A stretch of DNA of 58,758 bases, counting the filler, from Sphacelaria rigidula (taxonomy: Eukaryota), in assembly GCA_964200075.2 (NCBI GenBank). It is 8 parts of 8 records of this genome, joined end to end, with 100 filler letters (N's around TTAATTAATTAA, not from the genome) between each part and the next. Parts side by side here need not be neighbours in the genome. Positions count along the whole stretch, not along the records: positions 1 to 7,259 come from CAXNAA020015735.1; positions 7,360 to 14,617 come from CAXNAA020015736.1; positions 14,718 to 21,975 come from CAXNAA020015737.1; positions 22,076 to 29,332 come from CAXNAA020015738.1; positions 29,433 to 36,689 come from CAXNAA020015739.1; positions 36,790 to 44,046 come from CAXNAA020015740.1; positions 44,147 to 51,402 come from CAXNAA020015741.1; positions 51,503 to 58,758 come from CAXNAA020015742.1. The stretch is one strand, 5' to 3'. Below, piece after piece: positions 4,723 to 56,750 of the stretch. The position numbers and the translations under genes are program-made. Under the pieces are notes generated by a model that did no database searches, was not told the DNA's origin, and saw only the letters and a list, made by a program, of their open reading frames with translations. How positions within the stretch are numbered: position 1 is the stretch's first letter; the number at the start of each line of letters is the position of its first letter.

Positions 4723-4843
4723 GAAGCTTGTACGCGTTTGCTCCTCATCTTCTAGTCTTTGATCCCAAACTGCAAGCTCTCCCACGGCATCCCATCGTAC
4801 ATGTTGCCCTGTCGGTCACCCCCCTCATCGTATTGCGTATGGT

Positions 4844-5149
4844 GAGACAGCCATGAGGCAGTTTGTATCCCCGTGGCTGTCTGCGGTAGTGGTGATACCA
4901 GAAAATGAAGCAAGTCATTGGAGTCTGTCATTCATATGCGAGGTGATCAGTACGCTTCGGGCCGAACAATATTGGCAGGATGCAGCTCACCCTTCATACG
5001 ACTCGCCGAACACACCACGGCGCTTTTGCGTTTGGTGATTGATTACGATCCTGGTCCGGCGAAAACCCGGCGAGCGCCGTCTCGGCTAAGTAAGGATGCG
5101 AAGTCAACGGTCTTAAGACCGCGGCTTGCAAGATTATGAGTACACCCCC
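4844..5149 (+). mobile_element. ~310-bp SINE-like element (family B), full length
   Basis: Colinear with 31551-31858(-). Ends gcaagattatgagtacaccccc, and its last ~70 bp align with family A. Confidence 0.7.
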
Positions 5150-5458
5150 TTGCGTTACGTGGTTTTACCGACGACCCACCGCGATTTATGTCCATGTGGC
5201 GCATCAATGGGCAACAATCTAGCAGGTCATTGATGCAGATGCAACACACGCGTCCGTCTCCGTCCTCTGACCTGTTACTCTCGAGACTCTTACCATGATG
5301 TGGTGGTGAACGTTAGGCCGGGGGGTGTACTCATGTTTTGACGCGAACGTCGACTATTTTTCACGTCAGAGCAAGATGTCACTGTAATACTTCTAGACTG
5401 CTATTCTCTTACAGTTATCGAAGAAGACCGTCGTTCAAGACACATGCGCGCGCGCACG

Positions 5459-5461
<3 letters not shown>

Positions 5462-5514
<53 letters not shown>
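5462..5514 (+). repeat. (CA)n microsatellite
   Basis: Direct reading. Confidence 0.95.
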
Positions 5515-5516
<2 letters not shown>

Positions 5517-7068
5517 AAACGGTATACATGATGCTAGCGGTACAACAATTGAAAAAAAACTGTTCCCACACCACAGACCACAGAAGCAAGCAAAATTTGA
5601 ATGGGTGCATGCCCGCCCGCGAGGATAATGATGGTAACCGCGGAAATCTGTGTACCGATAGCGTCGCAATTTTTTGGTTGCCTGTGTACAAGTTTGTTCT
5701 TGTGGATGTCGTCGTGAGGTGCCACTTACAATCAGCTGCTGCAGCTAGCTACACGACGCCAGAGTGAAAGTAAAATTTTGACGAAAGTCAAGTGGGATTG
5801 GGGAGTGCTGATCCATTCCTCGACACAAAAATGTCGCGCAGTTTTTGATGATAAATGATTGATTATCTCACATTAGTTGATTGCAACAATCAAGCCCGTG
5901 ATCAGGAGCAGCAAAAATAGAACAAGACAATAAAAAGAAGAGAAAAAGACAGAAGCAACGGCCTCAGAAAGGAAAGAAAGGGAGCAGTGATGACAACAAC
6001 AACAACGACAAAATAACGACAAAAACATACACAAGCACGAACAGCACAAAAAGATGATGATCGCGCGTTACGTCGCTGATTGCAACACTCCGGCTCGTGA
6101 TCAGAAAAAAAGGAGAAAAATAAAGAAAAACCGGAAAAAAAAAAAGAACAAAACGTAAAGAAAGGAATGCAATGGACAAGAAGACAGAGCCAGGCTCGCG
6201 ACGACAGCGGCGGGTGGGGGGGGGGGAGCGGGGAGCACAGACGAAACAAAAAAACAGACAATAAAAAAAAGAAATCACCAGGAACAAAATATGAGCGAAT
6301 CGGAGATGGGAACCAAACACAATGCTCCACGTATCTGGCGTGGTCTATGATGAGTTGCTGTTGATACTCTCGGTTCCAGGTGCTGTCGGTGCATCTTGAC
6401 CTGCAGCTTTCGCGTGCCGTATCGCTGGTTGTGCGTCATCTTTTTGGCACCAGCCCGCCATAAACCTTATTCATGTATTACTCTAGATCTCATTTACTTG
6501 GTTGTGTGTTGGTCTTATTCGTCTGTGCATCTGTTCATATATCCACATATTTATATATTTCTTTTTGATCCGCCATACTTTCACACCTTCACTCCCCCCG
6601 GACAAGCGTAGTCTGGAGGGAGTACAACCCGCCTCTCCCCCGGTACTATACCTGCCTTACATTTTGGTATATCACAGGTTGGATCATGACTCCCGTCCCG
6701 CGTCCGCGTCGACTCTCACCAAAATTTTGCCCCTCCTCACGTCTCCAGTTTTTTTCAAGACAGATCAGATACTCCTGAGAGAAAAAAACATAAGGGATTG
6801 TATCTGCTGGAAATCGAAGCCCCTACTTATCCCTAACCGATTTCAAAACATAATAGTTACACCACCGGGGCGCGGCGGAATAATGCCGCGAAAGCCCCCC
6901 CCCCCCCCCCCCCGCCCCGCGTAGGGCACGGGAGTCGACAGGGGGGGAGGGCGGGTNNNNNNNNNNAAAACCAACCCCCCACTTATCCCCAACCGATTTA
7001 AAAAAAAAAAAGTTCCCCCCCCGGGGGGCGGGGGAATAAGGCCCCGAAAGCCCCCCCCCCCCCCCCCC

Positions 7069-7200
7069 GTGTATGGAAGAAACGTGTTGAGCGCCGAAAT
7101 GTTGGAGGTGTGTCGATGACGAGTAAGAACGGCGCTCCGTCTCGAAAAGGGATGCATGGTCAATAGTCAAACGACTGAAGCAAGCAATAAATGAGTACAC
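7069..7200 (+). mobile_element. 5'-truncated LINE 3' end (family A) between two poly-C runs
   Basis: gtatggaagaaacgtg...ctccgtctcgaaaagggatgc...aatgagtacaccccc. Confidence 0.8.
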
Positions 7201-7259
7201 CCCCCCCCCCCACCCCCCACCCCCCCCCCCCCCCCACCCCCCCGCCCCGCCCCAGCCGC

Positions 7260-7359
7260 NNNNNNNNNNNNNNNNNNNNNNNNNNNNNNNNNNNNNNNNN
7301 NNNTTAATTAATTAANNNNNNNNNNNNNNNNNNNNNNNNNNNNNNNNNNNNNNNNNNNN
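7260..7359. other. Artificial contig linker N44-TTAATTAATTAA-N44 (also 14618-14717, 21976-22075, 29333-29432, 36690-36789, 44047-44146, 51403-51502)
   Basis: The same 100-nt spacer with stops in all six frames recurs 7 times. The intervening contigs are 7259, 7258, 7258, 7257, 7257, 7257, 7256 and 7256 bp. Confidence 0.98.
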
Positions 7360-10300
7360 ACTCGACCGATGACGACTCGTTTACTGACGACTCGATCGCC
7401 GACGACCCGACCACTGACGGTTCGTTGACAACCAGTTCAACCCCTGACGGCTCGTTGACCGACAACTCCACCACTGAGAACTCGTTTAATGACAACTGAT
7501 TCACCGCCGACTGGACCACTGACGATGCCACCACTGTTGATTCGCTCGCTGGCGAATCCACGATGGACGACCCACTCGCCGTGACTCGACCACTGTGGAC
7601 TCGACCGCAGACGACTCCACGACCAACGACTCGATCACTGACGATTCCACCACTGACGACTCCATCACTGACGACTCCACCACTGACGACTCCACCACTG
7701 ACGACTTCACGACAGGTGAGTTGGTGACAGACGACCTCACCATAGATGCCTTCGTCATGGACCATCCAACAACTCATGACTCAACCAGACATGACCTTCC
7801 GCTACGACTCAAGGGCAGACGGTCTGACTCATCGCGAGTGACTCGACTACCGGACGCTCGTTCACCGACGCATCGACCCCGTTAGACACATCCACTGACT
7901 AGGGCACCACCAAGTTGACAACCAGAATCTCCACCATATACTACTTCATCACACACGGCGGTACTACAAGCGACCTGATCACTTGCTCACAGCACTCTTG
8001 ATCACGGACGAGACAGCCGTGAAGGCGGCGACCAAAGACAGTTCGAACAGATACGGGTCGACAACCGTCGACTCGACCGATGACGACTCGTTTACAGACG
8101 ACTCGATCGCCGACGACTCGACCACTGACGGCTCGTCGACTGACAACTGCACCGTTGACAACTCGTTCAATGACAACTGATTCGCCGACGACTGGACCAC
8201 TGACGATACCACCACTGTTGATTCGTTCGCTGGCGTCTCGACGATGGACGGTCCACTCACCGTGACTCGACCACTGCGAACTCGACCGCAGACGACTCCA
8301 CGACCGATGACTCGATCACTGACGACTCCACCACTGACGACTCGATCACTGACGACTCCACCACTGACGACTCCACCACCGACGACTCTACCACTGACGA
8401 CTCTTCGACGGGTAAGTTGGTGACAGACGACCTTACCATAGATGTCTTCGTCATGGACCATCCAACAACTCACGACTCGACCAGGCATGACATTCTGCTC
8501 AGACTCAAGGGCTAACGGTCTGACTATCCGCGAGCGACTCGACTACCTGACGCTCGTTCACTGACGCATCGACCCCGTCAGACACCTCCACTGACCAGGC
8601 TACCGCCAAGTTCACAACCAGAATCTCCACCATATACTACTTCATCACACACGACGGTACTACAAACGACCTGATCACTTGCTCACAGCACTCTTGATCA
8701 CGGACGAGACAGCCGTGAGGGCGGCGATCAAAGACAGTTTGGACAGAAACGGGTCGACCACCGACGACTCGACCGATGACGACTCGTTTACTGACGACTC
8801 GATCGCCGACGACCCGACCACTGACGGTTCGTTGACAACCAGTTCAACCCCTGACGGCTCGTTGACCGACAACTCCACCACTGAGAACTCGTTTAATGAC
8901 AACTGATTCACCGCCGACTGGACCACTGACGATGCCACCACTGTTGATTCGCTCGCTGGCGACTCGACGATGGACGACCTACTCGCCGTGACTCGACCAC
9001 TGTGGACTCGACCGCAGACGACTCCACGACCAACGACTCGATCACTGACGACTCCACCACTGACGACTCCATCACTGACGACTCCACCACTGACGACTCC
9101 ACCACCGACGACGCCACGACAGGTGAGTTGGTGACAGTCGACCTCACCATAGATGTCTTCGTCATGGACCATCCAACAATCCACGACTCAACCAGACATG
9201 ACGTTCCGCTACGACTCGAGGGCAGACGGTCTGACTCATCGCGAGTGACTCGACTACCGGACGCTCGTTCACCGAGACATCGACCCCGTTAGACACATCC
9301 ACTGACTAGGCCACCACAAAGGTGACAACCAGAGACTCCACCATATACTACTTCATCACACACGACGGTACAACAAGCGACCTGATCACTTGCTCACAGC
9401 ACTCTTGATCACGGACGAGACAGCCGTGAGGGCGGCGACCATAGACAATTTGAACAGAAACAGGTCGACAACCGACGACTCGACCGATGACGACTCGTTT
9501 ACTGACGGCTTGATCGCCGACGACTCGACCACTGACGGCTCGTTGACTAACAGATCGACCTCTGACGGCTCGTTGACTGACAACTGCACGACTGACGACG
9601 TGTTCAATGATGACTCATTTACCGCCGACTGGAGCACTGACGATGCCACCACTGTTGATTCGTTTGCTGACGATTCGACGATGGACGACCCACTCACCGT
9701 GACTCGACCGCTGTGGACTCGATCGCAGACGACCCCACGACCGACGACTTGATCACTGACGACTCCACCACTGACGACTCGATCTCTGACGACTCCACCA
9801 CTGACGACTCCACCACCGATGACACCACCACTGTCGACTCCACGACAGGTGAGTTGGTGACAGACGACCTCACCATAGATGCCTTTGTCATGGACCATCC
9901 AACAACTCACGACTCAAGACTCGACCAAGTATCATTCCGCTACGACTCGAGGGCAGACGGTCTGACTAATCGCGAGAGACTCGACTACCGGACGCTCGTT
10001 CACCGACGCATCGACCCCGTTAGACACCTCTACTGACGAGGCCACCACGAAGTTGACCACCAGAATCTCCACCATATACTACTTCATCACACACGACGGC
10101 ACTATAAGCGACGTGATCACTTGCTCACAGCACTCTTGATCACGGGCGAAACAGCCGTGGAGGCGGCGACCAAAGACAGTTTGTACAATAAACGGATCGA
10201 CCACGGTCGACTCGACCGATGACGACTCGACCACTGACGACTCGATCGCCGACGACTCGACCACTGTCGGCTCGTTGGCAACCAGTTCAACCCCTGACGG

Positions 10301-13300
10301 CTTGTTGACCGACAACTCCACCACTGACAACCCGTTCAATGACAACTGATTCGCCGACGACTGGACCACTGACGATGCCACCACTGTTGATTCGTTTGCT
10401 GGCGTCTCGACAATACACGATCCACGCGCCGTGACTCGACCACTGTGGACTCGACCGCAGACGACTTCACGACCAACGACTCGATCACTGACGACTCCAC
10501 CACTGACGACTTCATCACTGACGACTCCACCACTGACGACTCCACCACTGACGACGCCACGACAGGTGAGTTGGTGACAGACGAACTCACCATAGATGCC
10601 TTCGTCATGGACCATCCAACAACTCACGACTCAACCAGGCATGACGTTCCGCTACGACTCGAGGGCAGACGGTCTGACTAATCGCGAGCCACTCGACCAC
10701 CGGACGCTCGTTCACCGACGCATCGACCCCGTTAGACACATCCACTGACGAGGCGACCGCATAGTTGACAAACAGAATCTCCACCATGTACTACCCCATC
10801 ACACACGATGGTACTACAAACGACCTGATCACTTGCTCACAGCACTCTTGATTACGGGCGAGACAGCCGTGGAGGCGGCGACCACAGAAACTTTGAACAA
10901 AAAAAGGTCGACCACCGACGACTCTACCGATGACGACTCGTTTACTGACGACTCGATCGCCGAAGACTCGACCACTGACGGTTCGTTTACCGACAATTCC
11001 ATCCCGGGCGGCTCGTTGACTGACAATCGCACTACTGACGACTCGTTCAATGACGACTCATTTACCGTCGACTGGACCACTGACGATGCCACCACTGGTG
11101 ATTCGTTCGCTGGCGACTCGACTATGGACGACCCACTCACCGTGACTCGACCAATCCGGACTCGACCGCAGACGACTTCACGACCGACGACTCGATCACT
11201 GACGACTCCACCACAGGCGACTCCACCACCGATACTTCCACCACCGATGACTCCACCACTGACGACTCCACCACAGGTGAGTTGGTGACAGACGACCTCA
11301 CCATAGATGCATTCGTCATGGACCATCCAACAACTCACCACTCGACCGGGCATGTCGTCCCGCAACGACTCAAGGGCAGACGGTCTGACTAATCGCGAGC
11401 GACTCGACTACCGGACGCTCGTTCACCGACATATCGACCCCGGTAGACACCTTCACTGACGAGGGGACCACAAAACGACAACCAGAATCTCCACCATATA
11501 CTACTTCATCACACACGACGGTACTACAAGCGACCTGATCACTTGCTCACAGCACTCTTGATCACGGGCGGGACAGCCGTGAGGGCGGCGACCAAAGACA
11601 ATTTGAACAAAAACAGGTCGACAACAGACGACTCGACCGATGACGACTCGTTCACTGACGGCTCGATCGCCGACAACTCGGCCACTGACGGCTCGTCGAC
11701 CGACAGATCGACCTCTGACGGCTCGTTGACTGACAACTGCACCACTGACGACTTGTTCAATGACGACTTATTCACGACCGACTGAACCACTGACAATGTC
11801 ACCACCTTGATTCGTTTGCTGCCGACTGGACGGTGTGCGACCCACTAACCGTGACTCGACCACTGTGGACTCGACCGCAGACAACTTCACGACCGACGAC
11901 TCGATCACTGACGACTCCACCACTGACGACTCCACCACCGATGACTCCACCACTGACGACGCCACGACAGGTGAGTTGGTGACACACGACCTCACCATAG
12001 ATGCCTTCGTCATGGACCATCCAACAACTCACGACTCAACCAAACATGACATTCCGCTACGACTCAAGGGCAGACGGTCTGACTAACCGCGAGAGACTCG
12101 ACTACCGGACGCTCGTTCACCGACGCATCGACCCCGTTAGACACCTCTACTGACGAGGCCACCACGAAGTTGACAACCAGAATCTCCACCATATACTACT
12201 TCATCACACACGGCGGTACTACAAGCGACCTGATCACTTGCTCACAGCACTCTTGATCACGGTTAGGACAGCCGTCAAGGCGGCGACCAGGGACAGTTTG
12301 GACAGATACGGGTCGACCACCGACGACTCGACCGATGACGCCTCGTTTACAGACGACTCGATCGCCGACGACTCGACCACTGACGGTTCGTCGACTGACA
12401 GTTCAACCTCTGACGGCTCGTTGACTGACAACTGCACCACTGACGACTTGTTCAATAACAACTGATTCACCGCCGACTGGACCACTGACGATGCGACCGC
12501 TGTTGATTCGTTCGCTGGCGTCTCGACGATGGACGACCCATTTGACGTAACTCGACCACTGCGGACTCGACCGCAGACGACCCCACGGCCGACGACTCGA
12601 TCACTGACGACTCGATCACTGACGACTCCACCACCGATGACTCCACCATTGACGACTCCACCACAGGTGAGTTGGTGACAGACGACCTCACCATAGATGC
12701 CTTCGTCATGGGCCATCCAACAACTCACGACTCGACCAGGTATCATTCCGCTACGACTCAAGGGCAGACGGTCTGACTAATCGCGAGCGACTCGACTCCC
12801 AGACGCTCGTTCACCGACTTATCGACCTCGTTAGACAACTCCACTGACGAGGCCACCACAACGTTGACAACCAGAATCTCCACAATATACTACTTCATCA
12901 CACACGACGGTACTACAAACGACCTGATCACTTGCTCACAGCACTCTTGATCACGGGTAAGACAGCCGTAAAGGCGGCGACCAAAGACAATTTGAACATA
13001 TACGGGTCGACAACCGACGACTCGACCGATGAATCCTCGTTCACTGACGACTCGATCGCCGACGACTCGACCACTGATGGTTCGTTGACTGACAGTTCAA
13101 CATCTGACGGCTCGTTGACTGACAACTCCACCATTGACAACCCGTTCAATGACAACTGATTCACCGACGACTGCACCACTGACGATACCACCACTGTTGA
13201 TTCGTTCGCTGACGACTCGACGATACACGACCCACTTGACGTGACTCGACCACTGCGGACTCGACCGCAGACGACTCCACGACCGACGACTCGATCACTG

Positions 13301-36689: not shown

Positions 36690-39600
36690 NNNNNNNNNNN
36701 NNNNNNNNNNNNNNNNNNNNNNNNNNNNNNNNNTTAATTAATTAANNNNNNNNNNNNNNNNNNNNNNNNNNNNNNNNNNNNNNNNNNNNTGTGGGTGGTG
36801 TGGTGTGGGTGGCCCAGCACCGCGGCTCCGGTGGCGCGGCGGGGCGGGGGGGGGGGGGGGGGGGGGGGGGGGGTAATTTACTTCCACTTGGCTGAATTTG
36901 TATTGATCTCTGGTCATCGTTTACGGTATTTATAGGAGTATGGCCTCGGTAGGGGTGCACTTTTCAGTCTCAAAGATTTCTGAAGCTGCACACTAAGGCC
37001 TAGATATTTGTCAGCGAGAGCCTCCTACAAAAAAAGGTGCACCCCCAACTTGGCATCATGTTATTGCTCATGGGTTATATATAGGGGTATACTGTCAGCC
37101 GCTGATATTTCGGTGCTTGCGTATCATCCACCAGTAGAACGCTGGTTCGACTGTTGGAATGTTTGGACGTCTCGCGAAGGTAGGAATGAGTGTTCGAACT
37201 AGACGCTTCCAATCGTTGATATTTTGATATTATATATATATATATATATACATGTACGTATGTGTGCATATGTGTTTCCAGGTGACGATGACTGTCTCGT
37301 GGGTTGTGTCATGCATGTACAATTCTACTGTAAGAAGGGTGCGGAGGAAAAAGAAGACGAGTCTTGCGGTCGTTGACATTATTGTTGTTAGTATTATACA
37401 GCAATTCATTGTTGTTTTTTTCCCTTTTGTGGCAGACTGTGTACCTGAACGTGACTGCTGATATCTGTGTGTGTTTGATTTTATTTCTTTCCCCTGTTGT
37501 TGTTTGAGGAACGATATGAGAAGTCGACCTAAAGCAGGACAAATAAATAAGCAAGCGAAGGCGGTAAACTTTTCGCGTGCTTGAATATCAAAAGGCGTAA
37601 TCCGCAAGTGAATAATGGTCTTACCGTTGTGGATTGTTTTTTTCTTACATGTATGTTATTTATTGTAGGGTATGTGGATGTCACGCGGACTTCAATGATT
37701 GAAACAAGAAACTAAGATCTTTCCGGCATTTTCGTATTTTAGGGTAGTCGGTATCGAGGTTTTACATGTTGGCTTGAAAAAAACTGTCGGACATAAAATT
37801 CGACTGTTCTTGTTATTTATCGAGGGGTGGGGGTGGGGGGGCGGGGGGGGGGGGCGGAGGCGTCTACAGTAGTAGTATTACGCCTCGACTGTTTCTGCGT
37901 GGCGTTCGCCTTCTAGTCGAGTCTAGTCTAGTCTAGTGGTGGCAGTAGAGTAGTGTCATGTTCAAAATGGGGGGGGGAGTATGGTAGCCCTCTCGACCAA
38001 CAGCTCATTCGAAAAACGCCGGATTATGTCGCACAACTCCGCGTTTTTTTGTTATTATTTTGTTATTATTATTATTTTTTTTGACCGTCTGTTTTGACCG
38101 ATTTCATGCGATATTCATCGCTGCGTCGGTCTGTTCCTCCACGGCTTTCTCGGGAGAAGGGACACTTGTTGTTGGGTCACATGTAGACGACACACTTCTG
38201 TTTGAGTCGTGTGCGGGGGGGCATATATATCACTCTTACTTACCCAGAGCGCGTCAACGGTGCTTGTTTCGCTGTTGATTCGTGCTGTTTTTTTCTTCTT
38301 GTTTTCTCGTACAAGTGCGTCGTATCGTACACGAAGTACACAAAGTACACAAAAGACAGACTCTCGTTGCTCAGTGTGATTTTTGTTTTTCCCTTTCTCT
38401 TATACCCTCAGTGGATCGAAGACCCTTTTCGCCTCGTTTCTTCGTTTTTTTTGCAAAACAAGAGAGAAGATAAATCAGTCATTTGTTTTGTTTGCTTCGT
38501 CGGTTATTTGTTTGAATTGATGAAGCATTTTCTGGTCGGTCTTGGCGATGAAAGTTGGTTATAAATATAAAAAGCACGGCGACCCTGTTGGACAGAAGAA
38601 CACGGAGTGCAGTAGCGGTAGATGACACCACAGTGATGGGTGGTGGCCTCTTCGACATTTCGTTTGTGTCTTTTCCCCCCGGATGACCAGCGCGTGTATA
38701 TTTCCCGCCTTGATATCGACGTTGCAGTGATAGCGAACTCTTTTTCTTCTTTTATCTGTTTTTTCTTGTCTGGGAAAAAGGAAAACACCGGTATGAGCGA
38801 TGATGAGAACATGTTGGGTTTTCAGAGCGGTAGTCGTTTTCATTTTTGGTATTTTTGTTTCGAAAATGAAGAAGAAATAAACTGTCGTTTTCGGTCTATA
38901 TTCACAAACTAACAGGGATGATGATGAATGGGAACTCATTGGATTTTCGGAGCAAACTGTTTTTGTTGTTGTTGTTGTTGTTGTTGTTGATATTTTCGGA
39001 TGTTTTCGTTCCGAACAATAGCTGTTGCTTCTCGTTTCAAGATGTATAATGTATTTGACCTATCACGTACCCCCTTTCTTTTTGCCCTTGAAGGAAGGAG
39101 AAAACCCCTCTTAACACTCACCCCGCGAAACGGTTCGTGTGCCGATTATCCGAATGGGGTGCTGCTAGACCACCCACCGTATGGCGGTCATATGGGGTAG
39201 GCGCCAAGAGCGTTTTGGAAAGCTGTGCTCGAGAGAAGTGTGGATTCGACCCACTCAAAAAACCCTCGTCAACTTGGCGCAGTGCACGTGCCGCCCTACT
39301 CTTCTGAGCTGCGGCCCTACACATCATTCATGTTGATACTTGATTCGCAAGTTCCCGCACACAGAGGGGGGAAAGGCCAAGGGAAAACATATACCCCGTT
39401 GTAAGCTCACTGCTCCCTATTTGCACCAATATAATATCCCACACGCGGCCATTCGGCCACCCCCTTAAAAGTACTATATCGCGATTTTCCTTCTCTCGAG
39501 GGTAAAGTGACCCTCTCGAGGATAAGAATACTCTCTAGAGGGTATATCATACTCGTTTCCGGTCATAAAACGAATCCTCTGGAGGATATCCGATGCCTTA

Positions 39601-40299: not shown

Positions 40300-42530
40300 G
40301 CCGTTTGAATTGTGTGGGTGAACTTCATAAAAATGAAACTCTCTAGCTTTCACAGATGTTGCGACTTCGGTGCAGCATGTCGTTACCGTGACCACCTCTG
40401 AGCAGGCGGGAGGACGCGCGGTAGAGCAACGAAAGGTAGCTATTATCCGGTTTGCCTGGCGTACTGCCGACAGCGTCACGTGAAAGCCAGAAGACCCTTG
40501 CTGTCGGCGGTTGATGGCGTGGGTCTCGAGTGTATCGACATCCGGTTGATCGTAGAACACTCTCGTCTCTCCTTTCGAGTTGTGATAATTCATGGCCTTC
40601 TGACATCGGAATAATTATTACTTATGGGAAGCTACTCGTACTGTACCGAGCTTTCCAAGCGACCACCGTGGTGTGCTGCAGATTGCCTATGCGCCACCCC
40701 AGCAACAGTTAGGTCACCACCACACATATCTTTTTTCTCTCCGCATGTCAAGGAGGTCTCTACAAGTGTTTGATCTCTCATACACCCCCCTCAACTGGCG
40801 TGTGGCAGCCCCTTCTGCTCAGGCGCCCGGCTGGGAGAAGTCGGCGAAAATCAACGATTAATAGTACTCCCCAAGTTCAAATTGGATATATCTGTTATTG
40901 CCGCAGCACCGCCCTTGCTGGCATGTGTGTGACAGGGAACAGTAGTAGCGGTAACGGGAACATTGCCCTATTTTTCAATGACATGTTTTTCAGCGCACAG
41001 AGGCGCGTCCTGTCCAAAAGGAGAGGCAGAGAGGAATCGATCTTCGTATTCGTGAGCTCGACAGGCAAGAAGAGACGATGGAATCTCTCCGCACGTCGAT
41101 GTTCTGGCACATGGAAAACTTGGCACATGCTGGTATAATAACATTGATGATGCCAGTTTCTCAAGCGATTGGTAATCGCCGAGCGAGGACACACAAAGGA
41201 CACGGGCGAGGAGCTTCCTCTCTGTCGTTGCTTCTCTCTCTGGTGATATCGTGTCATTGACACGCATGTACACCGCATTCCTTAGGTGCACCTAGCCGCA
41301 GCTGCTCAACTGCTGCGGACATTTGGGGGGGAAGATGACTTCGCTCGGTCGTAAGTGTTCAGCGTCATCCCTGCGAAAGAGAAATAAATGCACTTCAACC
41401 CCATATTTTGTGTGAACCTCATTTTCTAGGATCCACCAACAGTGGATCCTAGAAAATCGGGTCCATCTCAAAAATAAGGTTCAAGTGACATTTCTTTTTC
41501 CAGGGATGACGCGAAACACTTGCGACCGAGCGAAGCCGTCTTCCCCCTCAAATGCCCGCAGCAGTTAAGCAGCTGTGGCCCGGTGCACCTAAGTAATGCG
41601 ATGTACACGCGTATCAATGACGATATCACCAGAGAGAGAAGCAACGACAGAGAAGAAGCTCCTCGCCCGTGTCCTTTGTGTGTCCTCGTTCGGCGAGTAC
41701 CAAACTCTCGAGAGACTGGCATCATCGATGTTACCAGCATGTGCCCAATTTTCCATGTGCCAGAACATCGAGCTGCGAAGGGATTTCCTCTCTTCTAACA
41801 ATTGCCTGTCGAGCTCACGAATGCGAAGATCGATTCCTGCCTGCCTCTCTTTTAGACAGGACGCGCCTCTGTGCGCTGAAAAACATGTCGTTGAAAAACA
41901 GAACAATGTTCCCGTCACACTACTACTGTTCTCTGTCACATACATGCCAGCAAGGGCGGTGCTGCGGCAATAACAAACAGATTCAATTTGAACTTGGGGG
42001 GTGTTATTCATCGTTGATTTTACCCACATCTGACTCTCTGGGTGCCCCACCAGAAGAGCGTGCCACACGCCAGTTGAGGGGAGTGTATGAGAGATCAAAA
42101 ACTTGTAGAGACCTTCTTGACATGCGGAGTGGAAAACGATACCTATGGTGGTGACCTCACTGCTACTAGTGTGGCGCATAGGAGTCCGTCCATGCTGCAG
42201 TCTGGAGCACACGCTGGTCGCGTGAACACCTCGGTACAGTACGAGTAGCTTTCCAGAATTATTCCGATGTGAGGAGGTCATGCATTACAAGCTGGGACGG
42301 GAGTGCTCTACGATCAACCGCTTGTCGATGCATTTGAGACTCACACCATCAACCGCCGACAGCAAAGGTCTTGTGGCTTTGACGCAACGCTATCGGTAGT
42401 ACGGCAGGCAAACCCGATCATAGCTAGCTTTCGTTGCTGTACCGTACTTACTCCCGACCGAAGTTCGCAACAGGTATGATGAAAGCTAGACAACAGTTGA
42501 TATTTTTCAACTACATTCACCCAATTTAAA
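40300..42530. repeat. ~2.2-kb imperfect palindrome (two ~1.1-kb arms)
   Basis: Apex attttctaggatccac-caaca-gtggatcctagaaaat (41421-41457). The arms match out to tctagctttca/tgaaagctaga. Confidence 0.92.
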
Positions 42531-43650: not shown

Positions 43651-45703
43651 TCGCCCGCATGTTGGTGAAAAAACGGCGTTGTTGTCTTCAAGAAGAACAG
43701 CTGTTGTGAACCCCAAACAGGTCATCGTTCATCTGAGTCCACCTGCGGGGGGTTCGCGGTTCAGCGATAATTTCACAAACTGTACAAGTGCAACGGCGCA
43801 CGGCAAAAACAAACGCACCGCCCATCATACCACGCACTTGATTGCAAAGAGAGAATGAGTTGTTGGAAGCGTTTTAATCTTCTTGAAAGAATCCAAACCT
43901 TTGGTACGGCACTTGTTGAAATCGATTTAAACAAAAAACACGCTTTTCAACGAGGCACATAACTTGCGGGCATACAACAGCGAATCATCTATGTTGAGGA
44001 TGGTACTTTTTGTTGAGGATGAAACACAGTCGGAAAAACTTCGCGCNNNNNNNNNNNNNNNNNNNNNNNNNNNNNNNNNNNNNNNNNNNNTTAATTAATT
44101 AANNNNNNNNNNNNNNNNNNNNNNNNNNNNNNNNNNNNNNNNNNNNCATGTGGGCGAAATTGCTGCAAACGAGTTCAATAGTGGGATTGCAGCCGGTTTG
44201 TCAGACGGTCTCCGGTGAACTTTTTATGGGGGTGCTATATCGGCATTAGTCAATCGTGGTGAACACCATTATTACACCCTTCTCAAGGTGCCTTCACCCC
44301 TATCACATCATAAAGGACGCGAAGTAGGCGCATAGAAGTGCGCATATTTTCGCTGGAAATGGCTTAAAATGGGGCTTAACACAAGGTGGCAAAGCATGCA
44401 TAAAAAAATGAGCATAAAACATGGGATCTTACAAATTGGGGATGGGTCTATCTAGAGGGTATTTTTATCCACCGGAGTCACTTTACCCTCGAGAGGATGA
44501 AAATCACGATAGAAGATTTCAAGGGGGTAGCCGAATGGCCGCGTGTGCTGTGATCACGGGTTCATGGACGAGATGTTTCATTCCCAAAAGTAGTGACGTT
44601 GTAGCAGATGAGTCGCGATCTTTTCGCATGCGGCCTTTTGTTTTCTACTATGTATGAGTGGGGTTTCCGCGCAAAACCTGTTCCACCGACGCCATGTGGT
44701 GAAATCGATCATTTATATATTTTTTGTTTTTTTCTTTTGTCGTTTTCTTTTCTCTTCGTTTTTTTTCTTGGTATGCTCTGTTTGTCTGTTTCACCTTTTC
44801 ATTTTTTCTTCACTTTCCTTCGGCGTGTGTTCTAGTTGTGCTTTGTCTCGAGTACATCAATCATGTGACCACAGCTGGATCCCTGGGAATCAGGTCAAGT
44901 ACGATAATTCATCTACATAATCAATCAGATCACGGAAGGTGTCCGCACCAAACAGAGTATACTACGGCCGGCAGAAGGTACTGCGTAGAGATCGGAACGT
45001 TTTTTAATTTGTTTGTGAAGCCAACAACAAGAACAACAAAATGCAACCATCTGATGACGGGATTTTCGCCAGATTGAGGCTAGCTTTTGATTGAGAGTGA
45101 AAACCCGAATAATAGGAAATCCTAATCCACTTATCGACTATTTTTTGTTGTGGAATACTTTGCTGAGACTGGCAAGGAGCGGCTCGAGTAAAATCTATTA
45201 GCCGTGGGATGAATCTGAAGTATAGTTTTAGTGCATTAGCCTCGTCAACCGTCAGGGATCTCGAACTCCAGACTTCCAGAGATGGTCGATTGGTAGCTGA
45301 AATAGTTTAACTTCCGGAATGTGTCTCCAGGCCTTAAACGGGGCCTTATACGCTGTCTGTGGTAGCTTGCTACTAAAGCCTCTGATATCTCTGAGAAAGT
45401 CATCGATGTGTAGCTGTAAGCACATGACAATGTTATTAGAGGCAAACACACACACTCACAAGGTGAAAAAAATATCAAGTTAGAGTGAGTCATAAACTCA
45501 CTTGCCATCAATACTGAACCCTAATCTGGCAAAACCCGGTTCAATATATCTGCGTACGCGCGACATACATTGGCTACCAAGTGAACGGTCCCATGACCAC
45601 AACGAACCCCCGCCGCACAAAATACCTACAGTGCTCCATTCATAATCAATGATGGAACACATGAAAGTAACGTCTTCCCATCAACCCCTTGAGCACCTGA
45701 GGT

Positions 45704-45959: not shown

Positions 45960-45971
45960 AGGTGTCCATTT

Positions 45972-46229: not shown

Positions 46230-49014
46230 ATTCGTGGGAACGACACCATCTTCACTTCTAGAAAAAGTAAACACGGTGCAGACTCCAAACGAAAATGATC
46301 CCAATTCCACAAATAGATACGCCCGGCGGTGAAGAGGTTAAAAATTGCACACTCAAATCAAGTGATGGACACTCAATCTAGTGTATGCGACATGATACGA
46401 TGACACCCAAATGGTTAAAGATAGTAGGATAATATTTAGTCTAGGATCAAGCCTTTAATGATTGCCTTATGAGTCATGTACTCCGGAAGGCTCGGTGCGA
46501 GAGTTGTGTACTCTGGGAGACTCACGATGAACCGGAAGGATATTCTAACAACCCAAAGCAGAGTCAAATCAAGCACTACTGTACGCTCAACAACACGAAG
46601 CTCCTGACTCACTGGTTAGCTTTGTTCTTGAGGACTTGTTCACCCGAAGCAGGTGGTGGCTGAGTGTACAGCAGATGATCAGATCCTCGAAGATGTGTTT
46701 GATCAGTTTCTACTGTATTACTGACCTCCAAAGCGACGGTTTGAGAACGAAGTGGGCGGTATGGCTTCTGCATCAAACCTTTCTTCCGACCCGGAAGATA
46801 TTCAGCCATCACTAAAAAATCTTATACGTCACGAATTATTTCAAGCTGCGTAAACGTACACGCAGGCAGGCCTTCATCCCTCAGCAGTTGCCATTGGTAG
46901 TTACTCAATCGAAATCGATGACCGTATTATGCCTTCAAAACCACATAATCCAACATCCGGTAGCGACCACGGCGTACGTGCTTTCAAAACGCGACTACAG
47001 TTTGTGCAGCAGCTGCTCCAATGTACGTGCAATTATTCACCAAAAATGCACTTCTCCTATCCGCCAGTCATATCTTGTCTGAATCTTGGAGAATAACACA
47101 GCAACTCTATACTCCTTGTCCTATCTCATCGCATGTAAAGGTTGTCGGTTGTGGTGATGGGGGGGCGATCAACGTTTTTATAGCCCGAAAATATCCACGT
47201 CGAGACATTGCTCGAGGTATAAAGCAATGTTGTTTGAGCCGCGTTCATGTCAAGGCGGAATGTGCACGCCGGATTCCAGTTTGGATTTTTTGTTCACGTA
47301 GTTATGTTGAAATCAAATGTTCTGACGGCTTTATCAAGAGACGAAAATTTATTCGCACGGGACGACGGACGGGACGGGACGGGAAGGGATATTAACAGAT
47401 ATTGCTCGACGCAGTAAGCACTGCTAGGTTGAATAACCTTGTTGTCGATATTCAGCAACATGCCGTCATGTAGCTTGGCTTCGTAAGCCCTACCCCGCCC
47501 TGCACGTCCACGAGATTTTCTTGTTTCTCGGTCACAGATTTGTTATCATGTTTGTCGTCCCTTCCTTCATTATTCTTTGCTTTTTCTCGAGTTTTCTCTG
47601 GCAATGCGTATTTTTCCGTTTCCTTGCCGTGGTTGATTTTTGTCTGATTTTTATTGATCTTGATTGTCGCACATGAACTGGTCCTCGAAGGACCCAGCCG
47701 TGATCATATCATGAATGTACCCAAGACAAACAGCTTAGGGATTGGTTGCTTACGTCTACCTCTTGGAGACGAGTGGGTTCGAAGTGAACCAGTGAATGTG
47801 TTTCGGAAATTCACAATAATCGATCTTTCAATCCAGCAAGTGTACTGTTCTACACCATGCGAACGAATCCCGTCGTTTCGAGTGATAATTTACGCTCACC
47901 CCCTTCCGCGAGAGGAATCCCACTAAGTATGGCACAAGGGAAAACAACCTTTGAAACAATACCAGGAGCACCGGTAAAGACAGCAACAACAGCCGCTGCA
48001 GCAGCAGCAACATCATCACCAGCAGCAACACCAGCAGCCACAGCATCAACGATAGCACCGACCATTTTCGCTAAGTTCCCCGGTCCCTAGGCACAATCGA
48101 TCTGGTATAACCACGAATCATTCGTGTAATAAGTAAAGGTGTGCACAGAAAGCACCAATAGTACTTACCTAAGGAGTCGTCAGCTGTGCGCGGATATGTG
48201 TTGTAGTCTGGCCACGAGATGATAAGGGTATCATCACTCTCAAGGAACATACCAGGCCAGGGGTTGCACGAAGCGAACGGCTAGCCGTAATGAATAACTG
48301 CAGTCGAGTGGAGTAGCTCTCCAGCTCGTGGCTCACAGATCCTTGAGTCCAAACCGGCACTGCATCATAAAGCAAAACATAGACTCACTTTCACGTGCAG
48401 AGAAGTGCTCTTGACTTGCTTGCGAGCGAGATGTCTACGAGTGGTGCCTGATAGCTTTTGTTATTAGGCGCTGCTAGGTAGCTAAACGAATGTTGCTAGG
48501 TAGCCGGAAGTTCTGAAGGACCAGGGGCCCGGGTGGAGCACGCCAAATTGGAACACAGCGCTAATATGCGAATGGAATAAAACCTACTGCACATGCCATG
48601 CGCACTTCGAAACGCCTACTGCATATACAGCCGATATCCGCCGTGACATATAGCGTTTCAAGTATGAATAATCGGACAGGAAAATACGGCGACGAAGCGC
48701 GGGTAGTAGAAAATACTACGCGGCGAAGTCTTGGTGGGTGCCTTTTTCTCCCGCTTTCGGATCGGACCTTCGACTACAATTAATTGCTGCAACCGCGTTC
48801 GCTAAGTTACAATCGGGCTTGAAAACCACCCTCAAACAAATGGATGACGACAAAAAGGCACGAAGTGACATGGTGGTAGTTGCGGTGTGCCATGTGTACC
48901 AAGGGCGCTGCAACGGCACATACGTGGCTCTCGTGCTTCACTGGTGGGGCATCGTCTTGAACCCGCAAATGTTGAAACATTCTTTGACTGTTCTCACCTC
49001 GGTTGGCGGTCTTC

Positions 49015-49450
49015 CACTATCATGGAAACTCCATCTGGGATACGGACACTTATCTGAGACACCATATGGATCTGGGAAATCCATTTGGGATATGGGTATC
49101 CCTCTTGGGTATCAATCTGGAATGTAGATATTCCTCCGAGTTATCCATATACGATGCGGACATCACTCTGGGATACGAGCAGTCATCTGGGATATTGACA
49201 TCCCAGATGGATCTCTTAGAATGTACTTCTCCCATGGACATCTCCGATGGACATCCCTGATAGATACCCGCGTATCCCAAGTGGACGTCCATATCCCAAA
49301 GACATTCCTGACGGATATTATCCATATCCCAGATAGATGTCCGAGACGGATACGATATTCCAGTTAGATATCCCAGATAAATGTGATATGATATTCCAAA
49401 TGAATATCCCAGATGAATGTGATACCTCAGATGGAAGTTGCACGATAATG
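49015..49450. mobile_element. CACTA-like non-autonomous element with subterminal ATCTGGGATA repeats
   Basis: cactatcatggaaactccatctg / cagatggaagttgcacgataatg. The motif is forward in the left half and inverted (tatcccagat) in the right half. No TSD seen. Confidence 0.6.
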
Positions 49451-51260
49451 ATGCACGGCTTGCATAGCATGTGCGGATAACTTGATTTTGGACACATCGC
49501 TTAATCTCTCTCTCCCTTTCGAAGGGTTCGTTCGTCATCGAAATGTTCTCACGCGGTATTGGCCTTTGCTCCAAGGCTTTATTGTCGAACATTGGATCAG
49601 CATTTCCGCAGCTCGTTGATTTTTATCAAACTGTTTTACCTGTAAATAATACATCGTACATATACTGTAGGCAGAGAGGACTACACATATGAAAACGAAT
49701 TCAATAAGCGGATACGCGACTAGTAGGATGGTGATGATAGTAAAGTAGCAATGTTTCAAGAGCCAGGCAGTTTTACTTTGCGGTATTTTTACTTAAATCG
49801 ATTGATCATCTCTTATTGGATCTTCCTGAAATCACCGTTAGGTTGAAATACTCGTGTACTTGCACCAAAGGGAAATATAATATGCGCCCGAATTGTCCCC
49901 ATCGATTACCAACTAAAGGGGCGATCATCGCATTCTCGCCGATCAACCACCTCAAGCTAGACTGTTTGTTGTCTTTTTCGGTTGTGAAGACGTTGTTGAA
50001 GTCGCTGGGGCCGCCTGCACTGTCACCCGCAGAATACACACGGCGATGATGAATCAGAGCTCAAGGCTGGTGTTTTCAAGTATTCAAGGGGAACGATATC
50101 CCAAATGTCACTCTCAGGTGAGTATCAGCACTTCTGATTGTAGAATGGGTCGTCAGCCCGCGCGGTGCCGAACACCTCTTGCCTCACACCTCATACTCTT
50201 AGTTCATTTGTAACGCTAGCAATGCAGAGTATAGCTTTCGTCACAAACACCCATCATCCTGTCTCTAGCGGGACGGGCGCAGTGCATTCCAACCTGAGAC
50301 TGATGCTGCGATAGCTCCCCCTAGAAACATGGCTAGTTTGAGGAGGCAAAATCTGCATGAGAACCAAAATGGCAAAAGTCGGGCACTCTGAGCTGCTAAG
50401 AATGCCGACGCTAAGGATAGTTCTCGTCACAGTCGGCCATAGGAGGCGCTTTATGCGGTCTGAAACCAGCCGTCATGCGCGGGATGACCATTGTCTTCGT
50501 GACAGTTCCATTATCTTGGACCGAGTACCCCAAACAGCCCCCATAATCGGAACGGGATAATGATCACGAGCACTTTCAAGAATTGTCATGAATAAACAAC
50601 CATCAATCAAACCTCAATTTCCTCCCTCATATCGATCTGAAATCTCCCAGATCTCTCAAATCCACACACTTTCTGGAAGATATCAAAAACATTCGAAATC
50701 AAATAATTTCAGAAACAATCAGCCCCCTCAAGAATATATTCAATCAAATCTCACTTCATCTCAATAACTTCCTAACCCGCACCGAATACAATATTCCCCT
50801 GGGGAAAATATTCTCAACTCGAAAACAATACCGCGTCAAAAAAATAGTTCTGGCATTTACGCGCACCCTTGTGCTTGTGTGCCCATAATATTTGCGTATA
50901 CCGGAATTCTCTTCCTGGGGAATGCGGCAATTCATCACGACAGATTCCGTAGACAAAATCGTATTTCAACTATATCGACCAATTCCAACCAGGTTTCGGA
51001 AGCACAAAGGCCTCAAAGATGGCTTTGCAAACATGTGAAAAAAAACATCCTTCAATACATCATGAAGCATAATAGTACATGGCAAAGTAAAAAACTCCGC
51101 GTGTAAAGACGCAAAGCAAAACTCCCTCCAATGTTTACTCCCTATACTGTTGCTTGAACATCAAGACACTCTCAATTGAATGTTCAACAGCCCCCCAGCC
51201 CCCCTGCTACAAAACTATTCCTGCGTGTATAACAACCCCACCCCCCTTCCCGGTTTTGCT

Positions 51261-51330
51261 TGGTGCTCCGTCTCGAAAGGGATGAGTGATCAATGGTCGA
51301 AAGACTGAGGCAAGCAACGAATGAGTACGC
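51261..51330 (+). mobile_element. LINE 3' tip (family A)
   Basis: ggtgctccgtctcgaaagggatg...gaatgagtacgcc between C-rich tracts. Confidence 0.75.
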
Positions 51331-51548
51331 CGGCGCCCCCCCCCCGCCCACCATCGTTGGGAGAGAGGAAGTCGCGTAGCGGGGCGGGAAGGGGGAGGAG
51401 AGNNNNNNNNNNNNNNNNNNNNNNNNNNNNNNNNNNNNNNNNNNNNTTAATTAATTAANNNNNNNNNNNNNNNNNNNNNNNNNNNNNNNNNNNNNNNNNN
51501 NNCAAGCAAATCAGGATCATGGCTCCCCCCCCCCCCCCCCCCCCGACT

Positions 51549-51613
51549 TGCTCCGTCTCGGACGGGATGCGTGGTCAATAGTCAAACGACTAAGGCAAGC
51601 AAGGGATGAGTAC
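51549..51613 (+). mobile_element. LINE 3' tip (family A), in the intron of the LRR-type gene
   Basis: Poly-C, then tgctccgtctcg..gggatgcgtggtcaatagtcaaacgactaaggcaagcaagggatgagtac, then poly-C. Confidence 0.8.
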
Positions 51614-51701
51614 CCCCCCCCCCACAAACACACACTTCTCCCGCTTCTCAACCCTTCCCCTAACAAATCCTCACAGAGCATCATCTCGTCTATCCAATCA
51701 C

Positions 51702-52740
51702 CTGAAAGAGAAAATGCCGTGAGCTTTTTCGAGGCAACCAGCAACCTCAAAAGCCGGGCGCAGAGCTCATGCGGCATATGGTACGCCCGCGGCACATACA
51801 CCGTCCCGTGCGACTCCCAAGCGTCCACCATGGCCTCGAGGCAAAGATTCGACAATACCATCGTCTCTCCGGACGACAACAGCCGCCGCCGCCGCAGTCG
51901 CCCGCCGTCGGTCCCGGCTGCATCACACGCGTCCCCGGCCGCCTCCGGAGATCCCACCTCCGACCTCGTCTCGTCTGACTGTTGTTGCACCACCGCCTGG
52001 GGGTGGTCTCCTCGAACCTCGCCTTGTGCTCCATATCGTGGCCGATGCGGGCCTTCCATGTCCTGCGCGGCCGCTGGCGCCTGCCCGTACACGACTACTT
52101 GCGGAGCATTTCGGGGGACATCAACAGCGTTGAACATCTCTACTGCTGCTCCTTCCCCTCGCGCTCTCCGTCCTGCTCGTGGTGGTGGTGGCGGTAGCGG
52201 CGGAGGCGGCGGCGGAGGCGGTGGTGCTTGCAGTAGTCGCGGCCTTCGTTCTCGCGCGGTATCCATGACATTTCGACTACCGTTGTCATCATGAGCATCA
52301 CCATTACCATCAATATTATTTTCTCCATCTCCATCACCATCGGGACGGTAACCGATGCGGTCATCATTGCGATAGTCCCCGCGGGGTTGATTCCCCCCCG
52401 GCGGGGCTCTAGCCCCTGACCCTGCCCTCTCCTCAATCCCGCTCCGGCGCCGCGCCACCCTCACTTCTGCCGGCCCCGGTTCACCAACCCTCACAGCGCT
52501 GCCGTGAGACCCTCGTGCGACGGCGCTGCTGCCGGAAAACGCAAACTCGCTGAGACGCGCCGCCTGGTCATAGCGGCGACCCAGACCCCCGCCAACGATG
52601 CGGTGCGCGGTAACGGAGCGCAAACGCGGCCTTCCAGAGTAGGGAACGATGCCGTTAGTGCTGGCGTCTCCGTCGGTTTCGGCGGGGCCGTAGAATAGCG
52701 GGGCGCCGGGGCGCAGCCCCCGTGAGACGGGTTCAGGCAT
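51702..52740 (-). CDS. First exon (346 codons +1 nt) of a protein with a disordered Gly/Arg/Pro-rich N-terminus and the cap region typical of LRR (RNI-like) proteins
   Basis: Long GC-rich ORF from ATG 52740, with LSNLCLEAMV...MPHELCARLLRLLVASKKLTAFSLS, then donor CAG|gtgatt. The rest of the gene is off the contig. Confidence 0.75.
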
Positions 52741-53415
52741 ATATGTATGCGTGTCTGCTGTTGGAAGATTTTTCGGGTCGGGACGAATGAAAAGCACAAA
52801 CAACCGATAGCGGTGGGGAAAAGGATGGGGGGAGTGGGGGGGGAACAAGGGTCGTGTGGCGCGGGGTAAGTTTGATTGCTTTTGATGCTATTCGTCTGAT
52901 CGATTTTCTTCCTGCTTTTTTTCTTCCTTTTTTTTTCTCCTCCGGTTACACTTTTAACTCATTTCCGCGGGGCAAGTCTGATGTATTACGGGGTCCGTCC
53001 GTCCATCCATGTCCCGTCGATATGAACCTACCTGCCTCGATAGGCTGGCAGGTATCGTGGAATACTAGATCAACACTTTCAGAACTGTGTCGACTTGAAA
53101 AGGAAGAAAAAAGGCTGCTCGCGGAACTGTACATCGTCGCGTGTTCAACGGCGCAACGAGTGAAAAATGGGAGAGAAGAAAGCGTTACATGATAGTACTG
53201 CATCTGTTGGGACTCGAAGCTTTAACTCTGCCCCCCAAAAAGTTTCAAGATTCACCATTTTAATTTAGACCACCAGGGGGTGCATATTGACGAACTCGGC
53301 GATGGTCACAGCAAGAATAGTCAGGTAGGATAAACGGAAAACAGTCACTGACTAAAGGCACAGTACCTTCAGATTTTGCCCGATAGCATGGGGGGAGGAG
53401 GGAGGGGGGGGGGGG

Positions 53416-53507
53416 GTTACTCATGATCTTGCAAGCCATAGTCATATTGCCGCTGACCTTATCTCTCTAAAAAGCCGGGACGTAGCACGCCGAGTTTTCG
53501 CCGGACA
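53416..53507 (-). mobile_element. Family B 3' fragment between G-runs
   Basis: ggggttactcatgatcttgcaagccatagtcata...aaagccgggacgtagcacgccgagttttcgccggac. Confidence 0.7.

Positions 53508-56710: not shown

Positions 56711-56750
<40 letters not shown>

Follow-up and report, generated by a model that had tools for sequence, protein, structure and literature searches.

A short non-coding C-tailed repeat sharing its 3' module with a second short element: a candidate retroposon pair without a tRNA-like head

The window, that is, the whole stretch of 58,758 nt that was analyzed, consists of eight segments of about 7.26 kb each, joined through N44-TTAATTAATTAA-N44 spacers, and contains scattered copies of two short repeats, A and B, which were located by blastn and alignment. 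A sequence-only reading had described B as a SINE-like partner of a LINE represented by A and had given 4844 to 53507 as its span. That span crosses seven artificial joins, so that adjacency is meaningful within one segment only. The individual B pieces were all recovered where that reading had placed them.

Element B forms a discrete unit some 305 bp long (4839-5143), with a C-tract behind it. In all three window copies that reach the head, similarity is lost upstream of the same base, the point of divergence being ATGryGAGACACCCATGAGGCAG, which agrees with the fixed start proposed earlier but places it about 5 nt further 5' than 4844. The full-length copy B1 (4839..5149, plus strand) runs for 305 bp to GAGTAC, continues with the letter A and C5, and is flanked by TTGCGT at 4833-4838 and 5150-5155. 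The second full-length copy, B2 (31507..31862, minus strand), has a body of 312 bp (31862-31551), including an internal duplication of about 15 to 20 bp, and a C-tract of about 45 nt, and it shares 77% identity with B1 across 244 bp in blastn. B4 (29433..29500, minus strand) comprises the first 68 nt of the head, preceded by a 13-nt C-tract and TATCA, the remainder being cut by a synthetic spacer. B3 (14795..15018, minus strand) is 5'-truncated and internally deleted, with a body of 191 bp (15018-14828) and a C-rich tail of about 33 nt, which is followed by A10 and then by a truncated copy of A. With B3, the shorter pieces are three 5'-truncated tails and one internal fragment. The other two tails are B5 (53390..53506, minus strand; 90 bp at 53506-53417 plus a C-tract) and B7 (33077..33140, minus strand; 59 bp at 33140-33082), which ends in GAGTAA without a C-tract. 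A short decayed tail of about 45 bp with a 23-nt C-tract also lies behind the B2 tail (31390..31455, minus strand). The internal fragment, B6 (54421..54471, minus strand), lies directly behind the C-tract of an A copy and lacks the B 3' end; thus, of the two "tips" previously assigned to B near 33084 and 54428, the first is indeed a tail and the second is not. Taken along the series of 305, 312, 191, 90, 59, and ~45 bp, the 3' end is constant and the 5' ends vary. In addition, four letters lie between a B tail (5148) and a B head at 4840 in one contig from run X1, and one 2,777-nt contig of run X9 terminates in a B copy.

Element A never exceeds 243 bp in the window. Its longest copy (17093..17349, plus strand; 243 bp plus C13) and the second long copy (54476..54744, minus strand; 237 bp up to GAGTAC, then a C-rich tail) both start at the same base, GATGCATT, within unrelated flanks. 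The remaining copies are a piece of 132 bp that immediately follows a C18 tract and carries a C-tract of 54 nt (7067..7253, plus strand), an internally deleted piece of about 111 bp with a short C tail (21567..21677, plus strand), a piece behind the B3 tail that is cut by a spacer (14718..14784, minus strand), and three tail-only copies, at 4230..4311 (plus strand; 65 bp plus a 17-nt C-rich tail), 51262..51345 (plus strand; with a C-tract), and 51549..51623 (plus strand; 65 bp plus C11, behind C20-GACT). As in B, the lengths (243, 237, 132, 111, 69, 65, and 65 bp) reflect a constant 3' end and variable 5' ends. The maximum of 243 bp and the common start base make A resemble a short passenger more than a LINE.

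A and B have in common a terminal module of 66 to 72 nt that extends from GTGCTCCGTC to GAGTAC and is followed by (C)n. The majority consensuses of the two elements are identical in 53 of 72 columns, and their alignment stops at GAGTAC. A 23-mer of the A tail has seven window matches at up to 3 mismatches, with 0 expected, and ATGAGTACMCCCC has 16 at up to 2 mismatches, with 1.9 expected, which confirms the shared end of about 70 bp noticed in the first reading. Within the module, two hairpins, CGUCYC-loop-GGGAUG and GGUC-loop-GACY, precede GCAAG..AUGAGUAC; the arms are kept while the loops differ (GAAA versus GGCUUUGWA, and AAAC versus UUAU or AUAU). Across 10 copies, whose loops vary, pairing in the GGTC/GACY hairpin stands at 90%; covariation, which had been suggested as a check on these stem-loops, did not accompany this conservation of the arms, as no pair was altered on both sides in the 10 copies. 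We count it against our preferred explanation that 228 of 500 shuffles score as well as the tail hairpin. Whole-element folds are likewise no better than those of shuffled sequences (z-scores of -1.2, -0.5, and -0.3).

Both elements are closely associated with C-tracts. A C-tract lies within about 10 nt upstream of six of the eight A copies and of B4, B5, and B6, and B3 sits behind (CA)13, indicating an insertion bias toward (C)n and (CA)n; B2 and the A copy at 54476..54744 have long C-tails and no upstream C-tract. As the earlier reading had noted, A and B adjoin one and the same C-tract at two places, 14795-14827 and 54476-54507. Such stacks of elements are always separated by a C-tract, and neither a directly fused partial tandem (pseudo-LTR arrangement) nor a 30- to 40-bp "tail" extension was seen in the window. 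Several runs share joints at which a C-tract of the A type passes directly into B (at 5046-5051, 4888, and 4975). The window contains 33 C-tracts of at least 10 nt, only about 10 of which follow GAGTAC-type ends, and another repeat family holds an internal C-tract, so that C-tracts are not solely tails, a point against our preferred explanation.

Direct repeats enclose several of the copies. The A copy at 4230 lies between 12-nt repeats, CCCCACCTCTCT, at 4216-4227 and 4312-4323, which enclose its 65 bp and the 17-nt C-rich tail, and the copy at 21567 lies between 11-nt repeats, CCCCCGGGCCC, at 21556-21566 and 21678-21688. The longest A copy has an imperfect duplication of about 14 nt starting with C6 (17079-17092 and ~17344-17357). 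All three duplications open with a C-run and enclose the element together with its tail. Among random position pairs, a repeat of at least 11 nt occurred in 31 of 20,000; when the pairs were drawn from C-rich context and the repeat had to contain 3 or more non-C letters, the figure was 9 of 10,000. B1 is the sole B copy with a candidate duplication, the 6-bp TTGCGT that abuts both of its ends, and this case is weakened by the fact that a 6-nt repeat is reached by 4% of random position pairs under a lenient criterion. Duplications of variable length (11 to 12 nt, ~14 nt imperfect, and 6 nt) around element and tail, together with 5' truncation, are the marks of target-primed reverse transcription, and the architecture is that of L1, with C replacing A.

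A and B are very abundant, with tens of thousands of distinct contig pieces in three DNA-type runs, X4 being from another study than X1 and X3. On a 1.3-kb stretch, at 80% likeness, 31,311 (X1), 18,243 (X3), and 24,585 (X4) contig pieces were counted, nearly all of which fall on the A tail and on B, and every unique flank corresponds to one contig (depth of 58.9 in X1). The depth profile peaks in the core of B rather than at its 3' end, which counts against our preferred explanation and which we provisionally attribute to the decayed tail of B1 and to the construction of short contigs. Two further uses of the contigs were dropped. The depth profile was not taken as a histogram of 5' truncation, as depth was added up contig by contig and varies with how closely B1 matches the consensus, and pieces ending at 4838/4839 were not taken as a test of the fixed 5' end, since the flank of B1 is unique there and any copy stops matching where it begins, which makes contig evidence on 5' ends weak. 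In pattern searches of public collections, the tail pattern gave 32 loci in viral_contigs, a B-core 21-mer gave 6 in metagenome_contigs, and genome_contigs yielded 5 bacterial loci; blastn matched nowhere beyond the pattern, and all are regarded as chance.

No reverse transcriptase or endonuclease domain was found in 154 stop-to-stop ORFs of the window (the 10 longest plus 144 of the 186 ORFs of at least 90 aa, the 42 others lying mostly in a tandem array). In the same ORFs Pfam yielded a single sub-threshold presenilin match, not upheld by translation. No open frame is conserved between the two long A copies or between the two full B copies, and the longest frame open in B1 drew no hit when searched as protein. 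A possible exon at 51643-51885 (minus strand) gave only LRR-like leads in the protein Atlas. In Rfam, no family reached its threshold in a whole-window scan, nor did any at an E value of up to 10 on either full B copy, and one sub-threshold bacterial sRNA match covers the 3' half of B1 (E=4.5). ARAGORN found no tRNA, in line with the earlier view of B as a fixed-length element of about 310 bp without a tRNA head, and the suggestion that the head derives from a small RNA gained no support from these searches. The impression that clear Pol III boxes are lacking held as well: matches to A-box and B-box consensuses are not above chance in the window (157 versus 175 expected, and 248 versus 232) and are not common to the copies. 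The dinoflagellate spliced-leader motif is absent from the window. In size and form, B is thus like a SINE (305 to 312 bp, non-coding, with a defined 5' end and a high copy number); neither a small-RNA-derived head nor an internal promoter, which define a SINE in the strict sense, was found in it.

Together, these observations support B as a non-coding, fixed-length, 5'-truncatable, C-tailed retroposed unit that shares a 3' module of about 70 nt with A, itself very likely another short passenger and not a LINE. The explanation we consider most probable, with moderate confidence, is that B (~305 nt) and A (~243 nt) are non-autonomous retroposons copied by target-primed reverse transcription through the enzyme of an autonomous element absent from the window. 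An RNA ending in the shared module, by which it may be recognized, and in a C-run would be copied by an enzyme supplied from outside the window. The enzyme would nick the bottom strand at a G-run, which could pair with the C-tail of the RNA and prime cDNA synthesis; synthesis would often stop early, giving 5'-truncated copies, and a staggered second nick would generate the target-site duplication of 6 to 14 bp with its C's first. Old C-tails could then serve as new targets, producing tail-to-head stacks. We favor a driver of LINE type over one of Penelope type. The absence of an autonomous element, a reverse transcriptase, and an endonuclease from the scanned ORFs is counted against this explanation, as is the failure to find a promoter or evidence of a transcript.

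The main rival to a LINE-type driver, which we consider possible but distinctly less probable, is a Penelope-like element of Chlamys type that carries a GIY-YIG endonuclease; A and B would be non-autonomous derivatives of it that have its 3' end in common and insert at (C)n and (CA)n microsatellites. Where Craig et al. (2021, PMC8557442) describe these elements of green algae and some protists, they are said to insert at (CA)n and (C)n targets, with frequent 5' truncation, head-to-tail insertions, and very high copy numbers in some algae, to lack a canonical hammerhead, and to include non-autonomous families with 3' ends similar to those of autonomous ones. The position of most copies behind C-tracts and of one behind (CA)13, the common stacks, the failure of Rfam to detect a hammerhead, and the labels "algae metagenome" and "marine metagenome" among the runs containing the stretch all fit this origin. 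However, the duplications (two clear and one imperfect) open with a C-run and enclose an added C-rich tail, as L1 duplications do with A's; two copies have long C-tails without an upstream C-tract; and the window shows neither pseudo-LTRs nor the "tail" extension. The SINE-LINE pair of the first reading, with A as the 3' terminus of a stringent LINE all of whose visible copies are 5'-truncated and with B as the corresponding SINE, stands as regards a fixed-length, C-tailed B sharing its tail, but is unlikely as regards A. The graded lengths of A, 65 to 243 bp up to one and the same 3' end, would suit a LINE, and the shared module fits the stringent SINE/LINE model as outlined by Ohshima (2013, PMC3747384), but the two longest copies share their start base within unrelated flanks, one being abutted by the imperfect duplication, and neither a reverse transcriptase domain in the scanned ORFs nor a frame open in both was seen. 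The reading of B as a sister LINE's 3' UTR, every visible copy being a truncation, is highly improbable. It is favored by the 5'-truncated copies and by the X9 contig ending in B; against it stand the same 5' end in three of three window copies and one contig joint and the 6-bp repeat abutting that end in B1.

The two elements have parallels in several known systems. Like A and B, L1 and Alu are heavily 5'-truncated, insert into earlier tails, and carry a homopolymer tail of variable length whose letter also opens their duplications. A and B differ in using C instead of A and in having before the tail a conserved 70-nt module that is lacking in L1 and Alu. Eel UnaSINE1 and UnaL2, as presented in Ohshima (2013, PMC3747384), likewise pair a short element with a partner through a hairpin-bearing 3' tail ending in a short repeat, which is thought to serve priming or slippage; they differ in that the head of B is not tRNA-derived, its terminal repeat is a C homopolymer rather than TGTAA, and its tail-sharing partner A is itself short, a LINE not being among the window elements. 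Also comparable to B are SINE-like elements whose heads have no known origin, SINEX-1/2/4_CR with the RandI/Dualen LINEs of Chlamydomonas and EhLSINE1 with EhLINE1 of Entamoeba, which the same source lists as having no tRNA, 5S, or 7SL head, a 3' end borrowed from a retroelement family, and protist or algal hosts. Their LINE partners, in contrast to that of B, have been identified, and their terminal repeats are (ATT)n, (CTTT)n, or the like (PMC3747384); (C)n does not occur among the 3' repeats in its tables. MRC1-like non-autonomous Chlamys derivatives, in the account of PMC8557442, match A and B in their (C)n/(CA)n association, 5' truncation, stacks, 3' likeness between families, and possibly an algal host, here judged by run labels only; A and B have no pseudo-LTRs and their duplications are L1-like, the comparison being by description rather than by sequence.

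More broadly, and tentatively, the host may possess a system for retrotransposition based on a poly(C) tail and on priming at G-runs, in the way that L1 relies on poly(A) and T-runs, with short RNAs (A, B, and perhaps others) as passengers. If so, the 33 C-tracts of at least 10 nt in 58 kb would be footprints of this system, and its passengers would be several unrelated short RNAs, perhaps including other C-tract-associated repeats. To our knowledge, no LINE/SINE system has been described as one tailed by a C homopolymer, and we know of homopolymer-primed retroposition almost only for poly(A). Among the papers listed by a literature search under the wording "poly-C" ("poly(C)" with brackets not being matchable), the only one containing it was on L1 endonuclease biochemistry. 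Should the driver of A and B instead prove to be a Penelope-like element of Chlamys type, their copies would offer clean junctions at which to study how it inserts, a process that is poorly understood. The abundance of A and B matters for assembly and repeat masking. A C-tailed family with target duplications that open with C's and a conserved hairpin module would give a natural second case of homopolymer-primed retroposition, in which base pairing between tail and nick could be separated from RNA recognition in target-primed reverse transcription, and poly(C) retroposition would account for the common C/G homopolymer tracts in this genome.

Family B, a non-coding C-tailed unit of ~305 bp, was recovered by blastn and MAFFT at the positions proposed by the sequence-only reading. 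Two copies are full length, B1 (4839-5143, plus strand) and B2 (31862-31551, minus strand), and share 77% identity across 244 bp in blastn. B4 (29500-29433, minus) is a head that ends at a spacer, B6 (54471-54421, minus) is an internal fragment, and B3, B5, B7, and a ~45-bp piece at 31455-31412 (minus) are 5' truncated. Upstream similarity is lost at one common point, ATGryGAGACACCCATGAGGCAG, in all three window copies that reach the B head. A contig linking a B tail, via four letters, to the B head at 4840 adds a fourth copy sharing this 5' end. Contig alignments ending at 4838/4839 are uninformative on this end, since the flank of B1 is itself unique at that position. The earlier suggestion of a small-RNA origin for the head gained nothing from Rfam: no match in the whole window reached any family's threshold, and those listed for the whole window were all subthreshold and outside A and B copies. 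At an E value of ≤10, B1 had one subthreshold bacterial sRNA match (E value of 4.5) and B2 had none. ARAGORN predicted no tRNA, and, as previously remarked, B has no clear Pol III boxes, with window matches to the box consensuses not above chance. Heads of unknown origin are also well documented in other SINE-like elements, such as SINEX-1/2/4_CR with RandI tails (PMC3747384).

The proposed tail sharing between B and the second repeat family, A, is real. The majority consensuses of A and B can be aligned only in their terminal 66 and 72 nt, respectively, a module that runs from GTGCTCCGTC to GAGTAC and has 53 identical positions in 72 columns. Behind every intact A or B end lies a C-tract measuring 4 to 54 nt. 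The tail motifs are far above chance in the window (7 versus 0 expected and 16 versus 1.9 expected). Between A and B, the tail arms CGTCYC/GGGATG and GGTC/GACY are conserved but the loops are not. In the second tail hairpin, 90% of cells pair, and the outer pair is G-U, A-U, or G-C; none of its pairs is changed on both sides, and an equal score was reached by 228 of 500 shuffles. Whole-element folds were no more stable than shuffles, and the tail hairpin structure is plausible but unproven. In addition, an exact ATGAGTACACCCC at 5322-5334 (minus), lacking an upstream A or B body and having a contig depth only ~2 times single copy, is either a tail-only microinsertion or chance (~0.002 expected, by estimate).

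In the alignment, the eight A copies have a constant 3' end, and their 5' ends lie 65 to 243 bp away from it. Both of the longest copies start at the same base within unrelated flanks, an imperfect duplication abuts this base in one of them, and no open frame is common to both; this suggests that A is a second short passenger, and its designation as a LINE was not substantiated. Pfam was searched with 154 stop-to-stop ORFs (the ten longest plus 144 of the 186 ORFs of at least 90 amino acids; the other 42 lie mostly in a tandem array). No domain was found among these ORFs, reverse transcriptase (RT) or endonuclease remnants included, except for one subthreshold presenilin match, rejected as unsupported by translation. 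A protein search found no related protein. The array occupies the whole second segment (7360-14617) as ~700-bp units with a 15-bp subrepeat, GACTCCACCACTGAC, and strong strand skew; minus-strand open frames of 160 to 190 amino acids recur per unit, and those scanned contained no Pfam domain. The 58,758-base window comprises eight ~7.26-kb segments split by seven synthetic N44-TTAATTAATTAA-N44 spacers (7260-7359, 14618-14717, 21976-22075, 29333-29432, 36690-36789, 44047-44146, and 51403-51502), across which there is no continuity; it is joined segments and not a single locus.

Flanking duplications point to retroposition. A 65-bp A copy with 17 nt of C-rich sequence at 4230 is enclosed by CCCCACCTCTCT, a copy with a short C tail at 21567 is enclosed by CCCCCGGGCCC, and the longest copy with C13 at 17093 has an imperfect ~14-nt repeat around it; a C-run opens all three repeats. 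In controls, repeats of at least 11 nt occurred in 31 of 20,000 random position pairs and, in C-rich contexts, repeats of at least 11 nt with at least 3 non-C letters occurred in 9 of 10,000 pairs. B1 with C5 is enclosed by TTGCGT, which is weak since 6 nt is reached by 4% of random pairs under a lenient criterion. The C-tract is thus a tail, not only a target, and the arrangement is that of L1, with C in place of A. Another C-tract directly precedes most copies, and the adjoining of A and B at C-tracts was confirmed within segments as tail-to-head stacks (B3 then A; A then B6), with B2 followed by a B tip as a further one. Truncation points are nonrandom: the 5' ends of three A copies (4230, 51262-51264, and 51549) lie no more than 2 nt from the module start, and B5, B6, and many contigs begin at equivalents of 5046-5051, ~95 nt from the B end. 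RT pausing at the hairpins is one conceivable source of these preferred 5' start points.

Among the runs listed, six contain the stretch or part of it; they come from three studies, with labels including a coded organism, "algae metagenome," and "marine metagenome." Contigs of runs X1, X3, X4, and X9 matched to 4100-5400 at 80% likeness gave 31,311, 18,243, 24,585, and 2,493 pieces, respectively, nearly all of them falling within B or the A tail; each unique flank is covered by one contig (depth of 58.9 in X1). Recurrent joints lead from an A-type C-tract directly into B at 5046-5051, 4888, and 4975. The depth profile, which peaks in the B core, was not read as a truncation histogram. Scans of external sequence collections yielded no further copies.

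C-tracts are a general feature of this genome. The window has 33 C- or G-tracts of at least 10 nt, about ten of them after A or B ends, and another repeat family (1168-1412, plus; 23016-23114, plus; 35000-34900, minus) has a C-tract internally, between TTTGTCGCACTTTGAA and TCYTCGGGACGAGTC..GGTCTCAAGGGATCAACCCAT, so C-tracts here are not only 3' tails. The same machinery may have left them as footprints, or they may form an independent class of microsatellites that it targets. A GC hairpin motif (..GGAATAAKGCCSCGAAAG) followed by C18-C24 occurs in two neighboring plus-strand copies (6870-6918 and 7023-7068), possibly an assembly duplicate given the 10-N assembly gap between them; a truncated A copy immediately follows the second. 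Against these 33 C/G tracts there is only one long A-tract, ~74 A's at 56675-56748, which adjoins a 10-N gap. Plant miRNA-precursor models give hits on both strands to near-perfect long hairpins at 41319-41555 and 18072-18215, but far under threshold (72 bits versus 144 needed); these hairpins are probably MITE-like inverted repeats.

For the autonomous driver, a LINE-type element is ahead, and C-initial duplications and added tails fit it. Stringent SINE/LINE pairs that combine a hairpin tail with a terminal repeat are well established (Ohshima 2013, PMC3747384); the 3' repeats in the tables of that paper are (A)n, (ATT)n, (CA)n, and others, with (C)n absent, unlike the C-tail of B. The rival driver is a Chlamys-type Penelope-like element. 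Chlamys elements are reported by Craig et al. 2021 (PMC8557442) to insert at (C)n and (CA)n, to be 5' truncated, to form head-to-tail copies, to lack a canonical hammerhead, to be very numerous in some algae, and to have nonautonomous derivatives with common 3' ends. However, no pseudo-LTR was seen among window copies, and copies without an upstream C-tract nonetheless bear long tails, for which reasons the LINE type is preferred. The SINE-LINE pair originally proposed is partly supported. The LINE status of A is not supported, and the SINE-like, C-tailed partner sharing A's tail stands: B is genuine and abundant, a head-less SINE-like retroposon whose C-tail is unusual.
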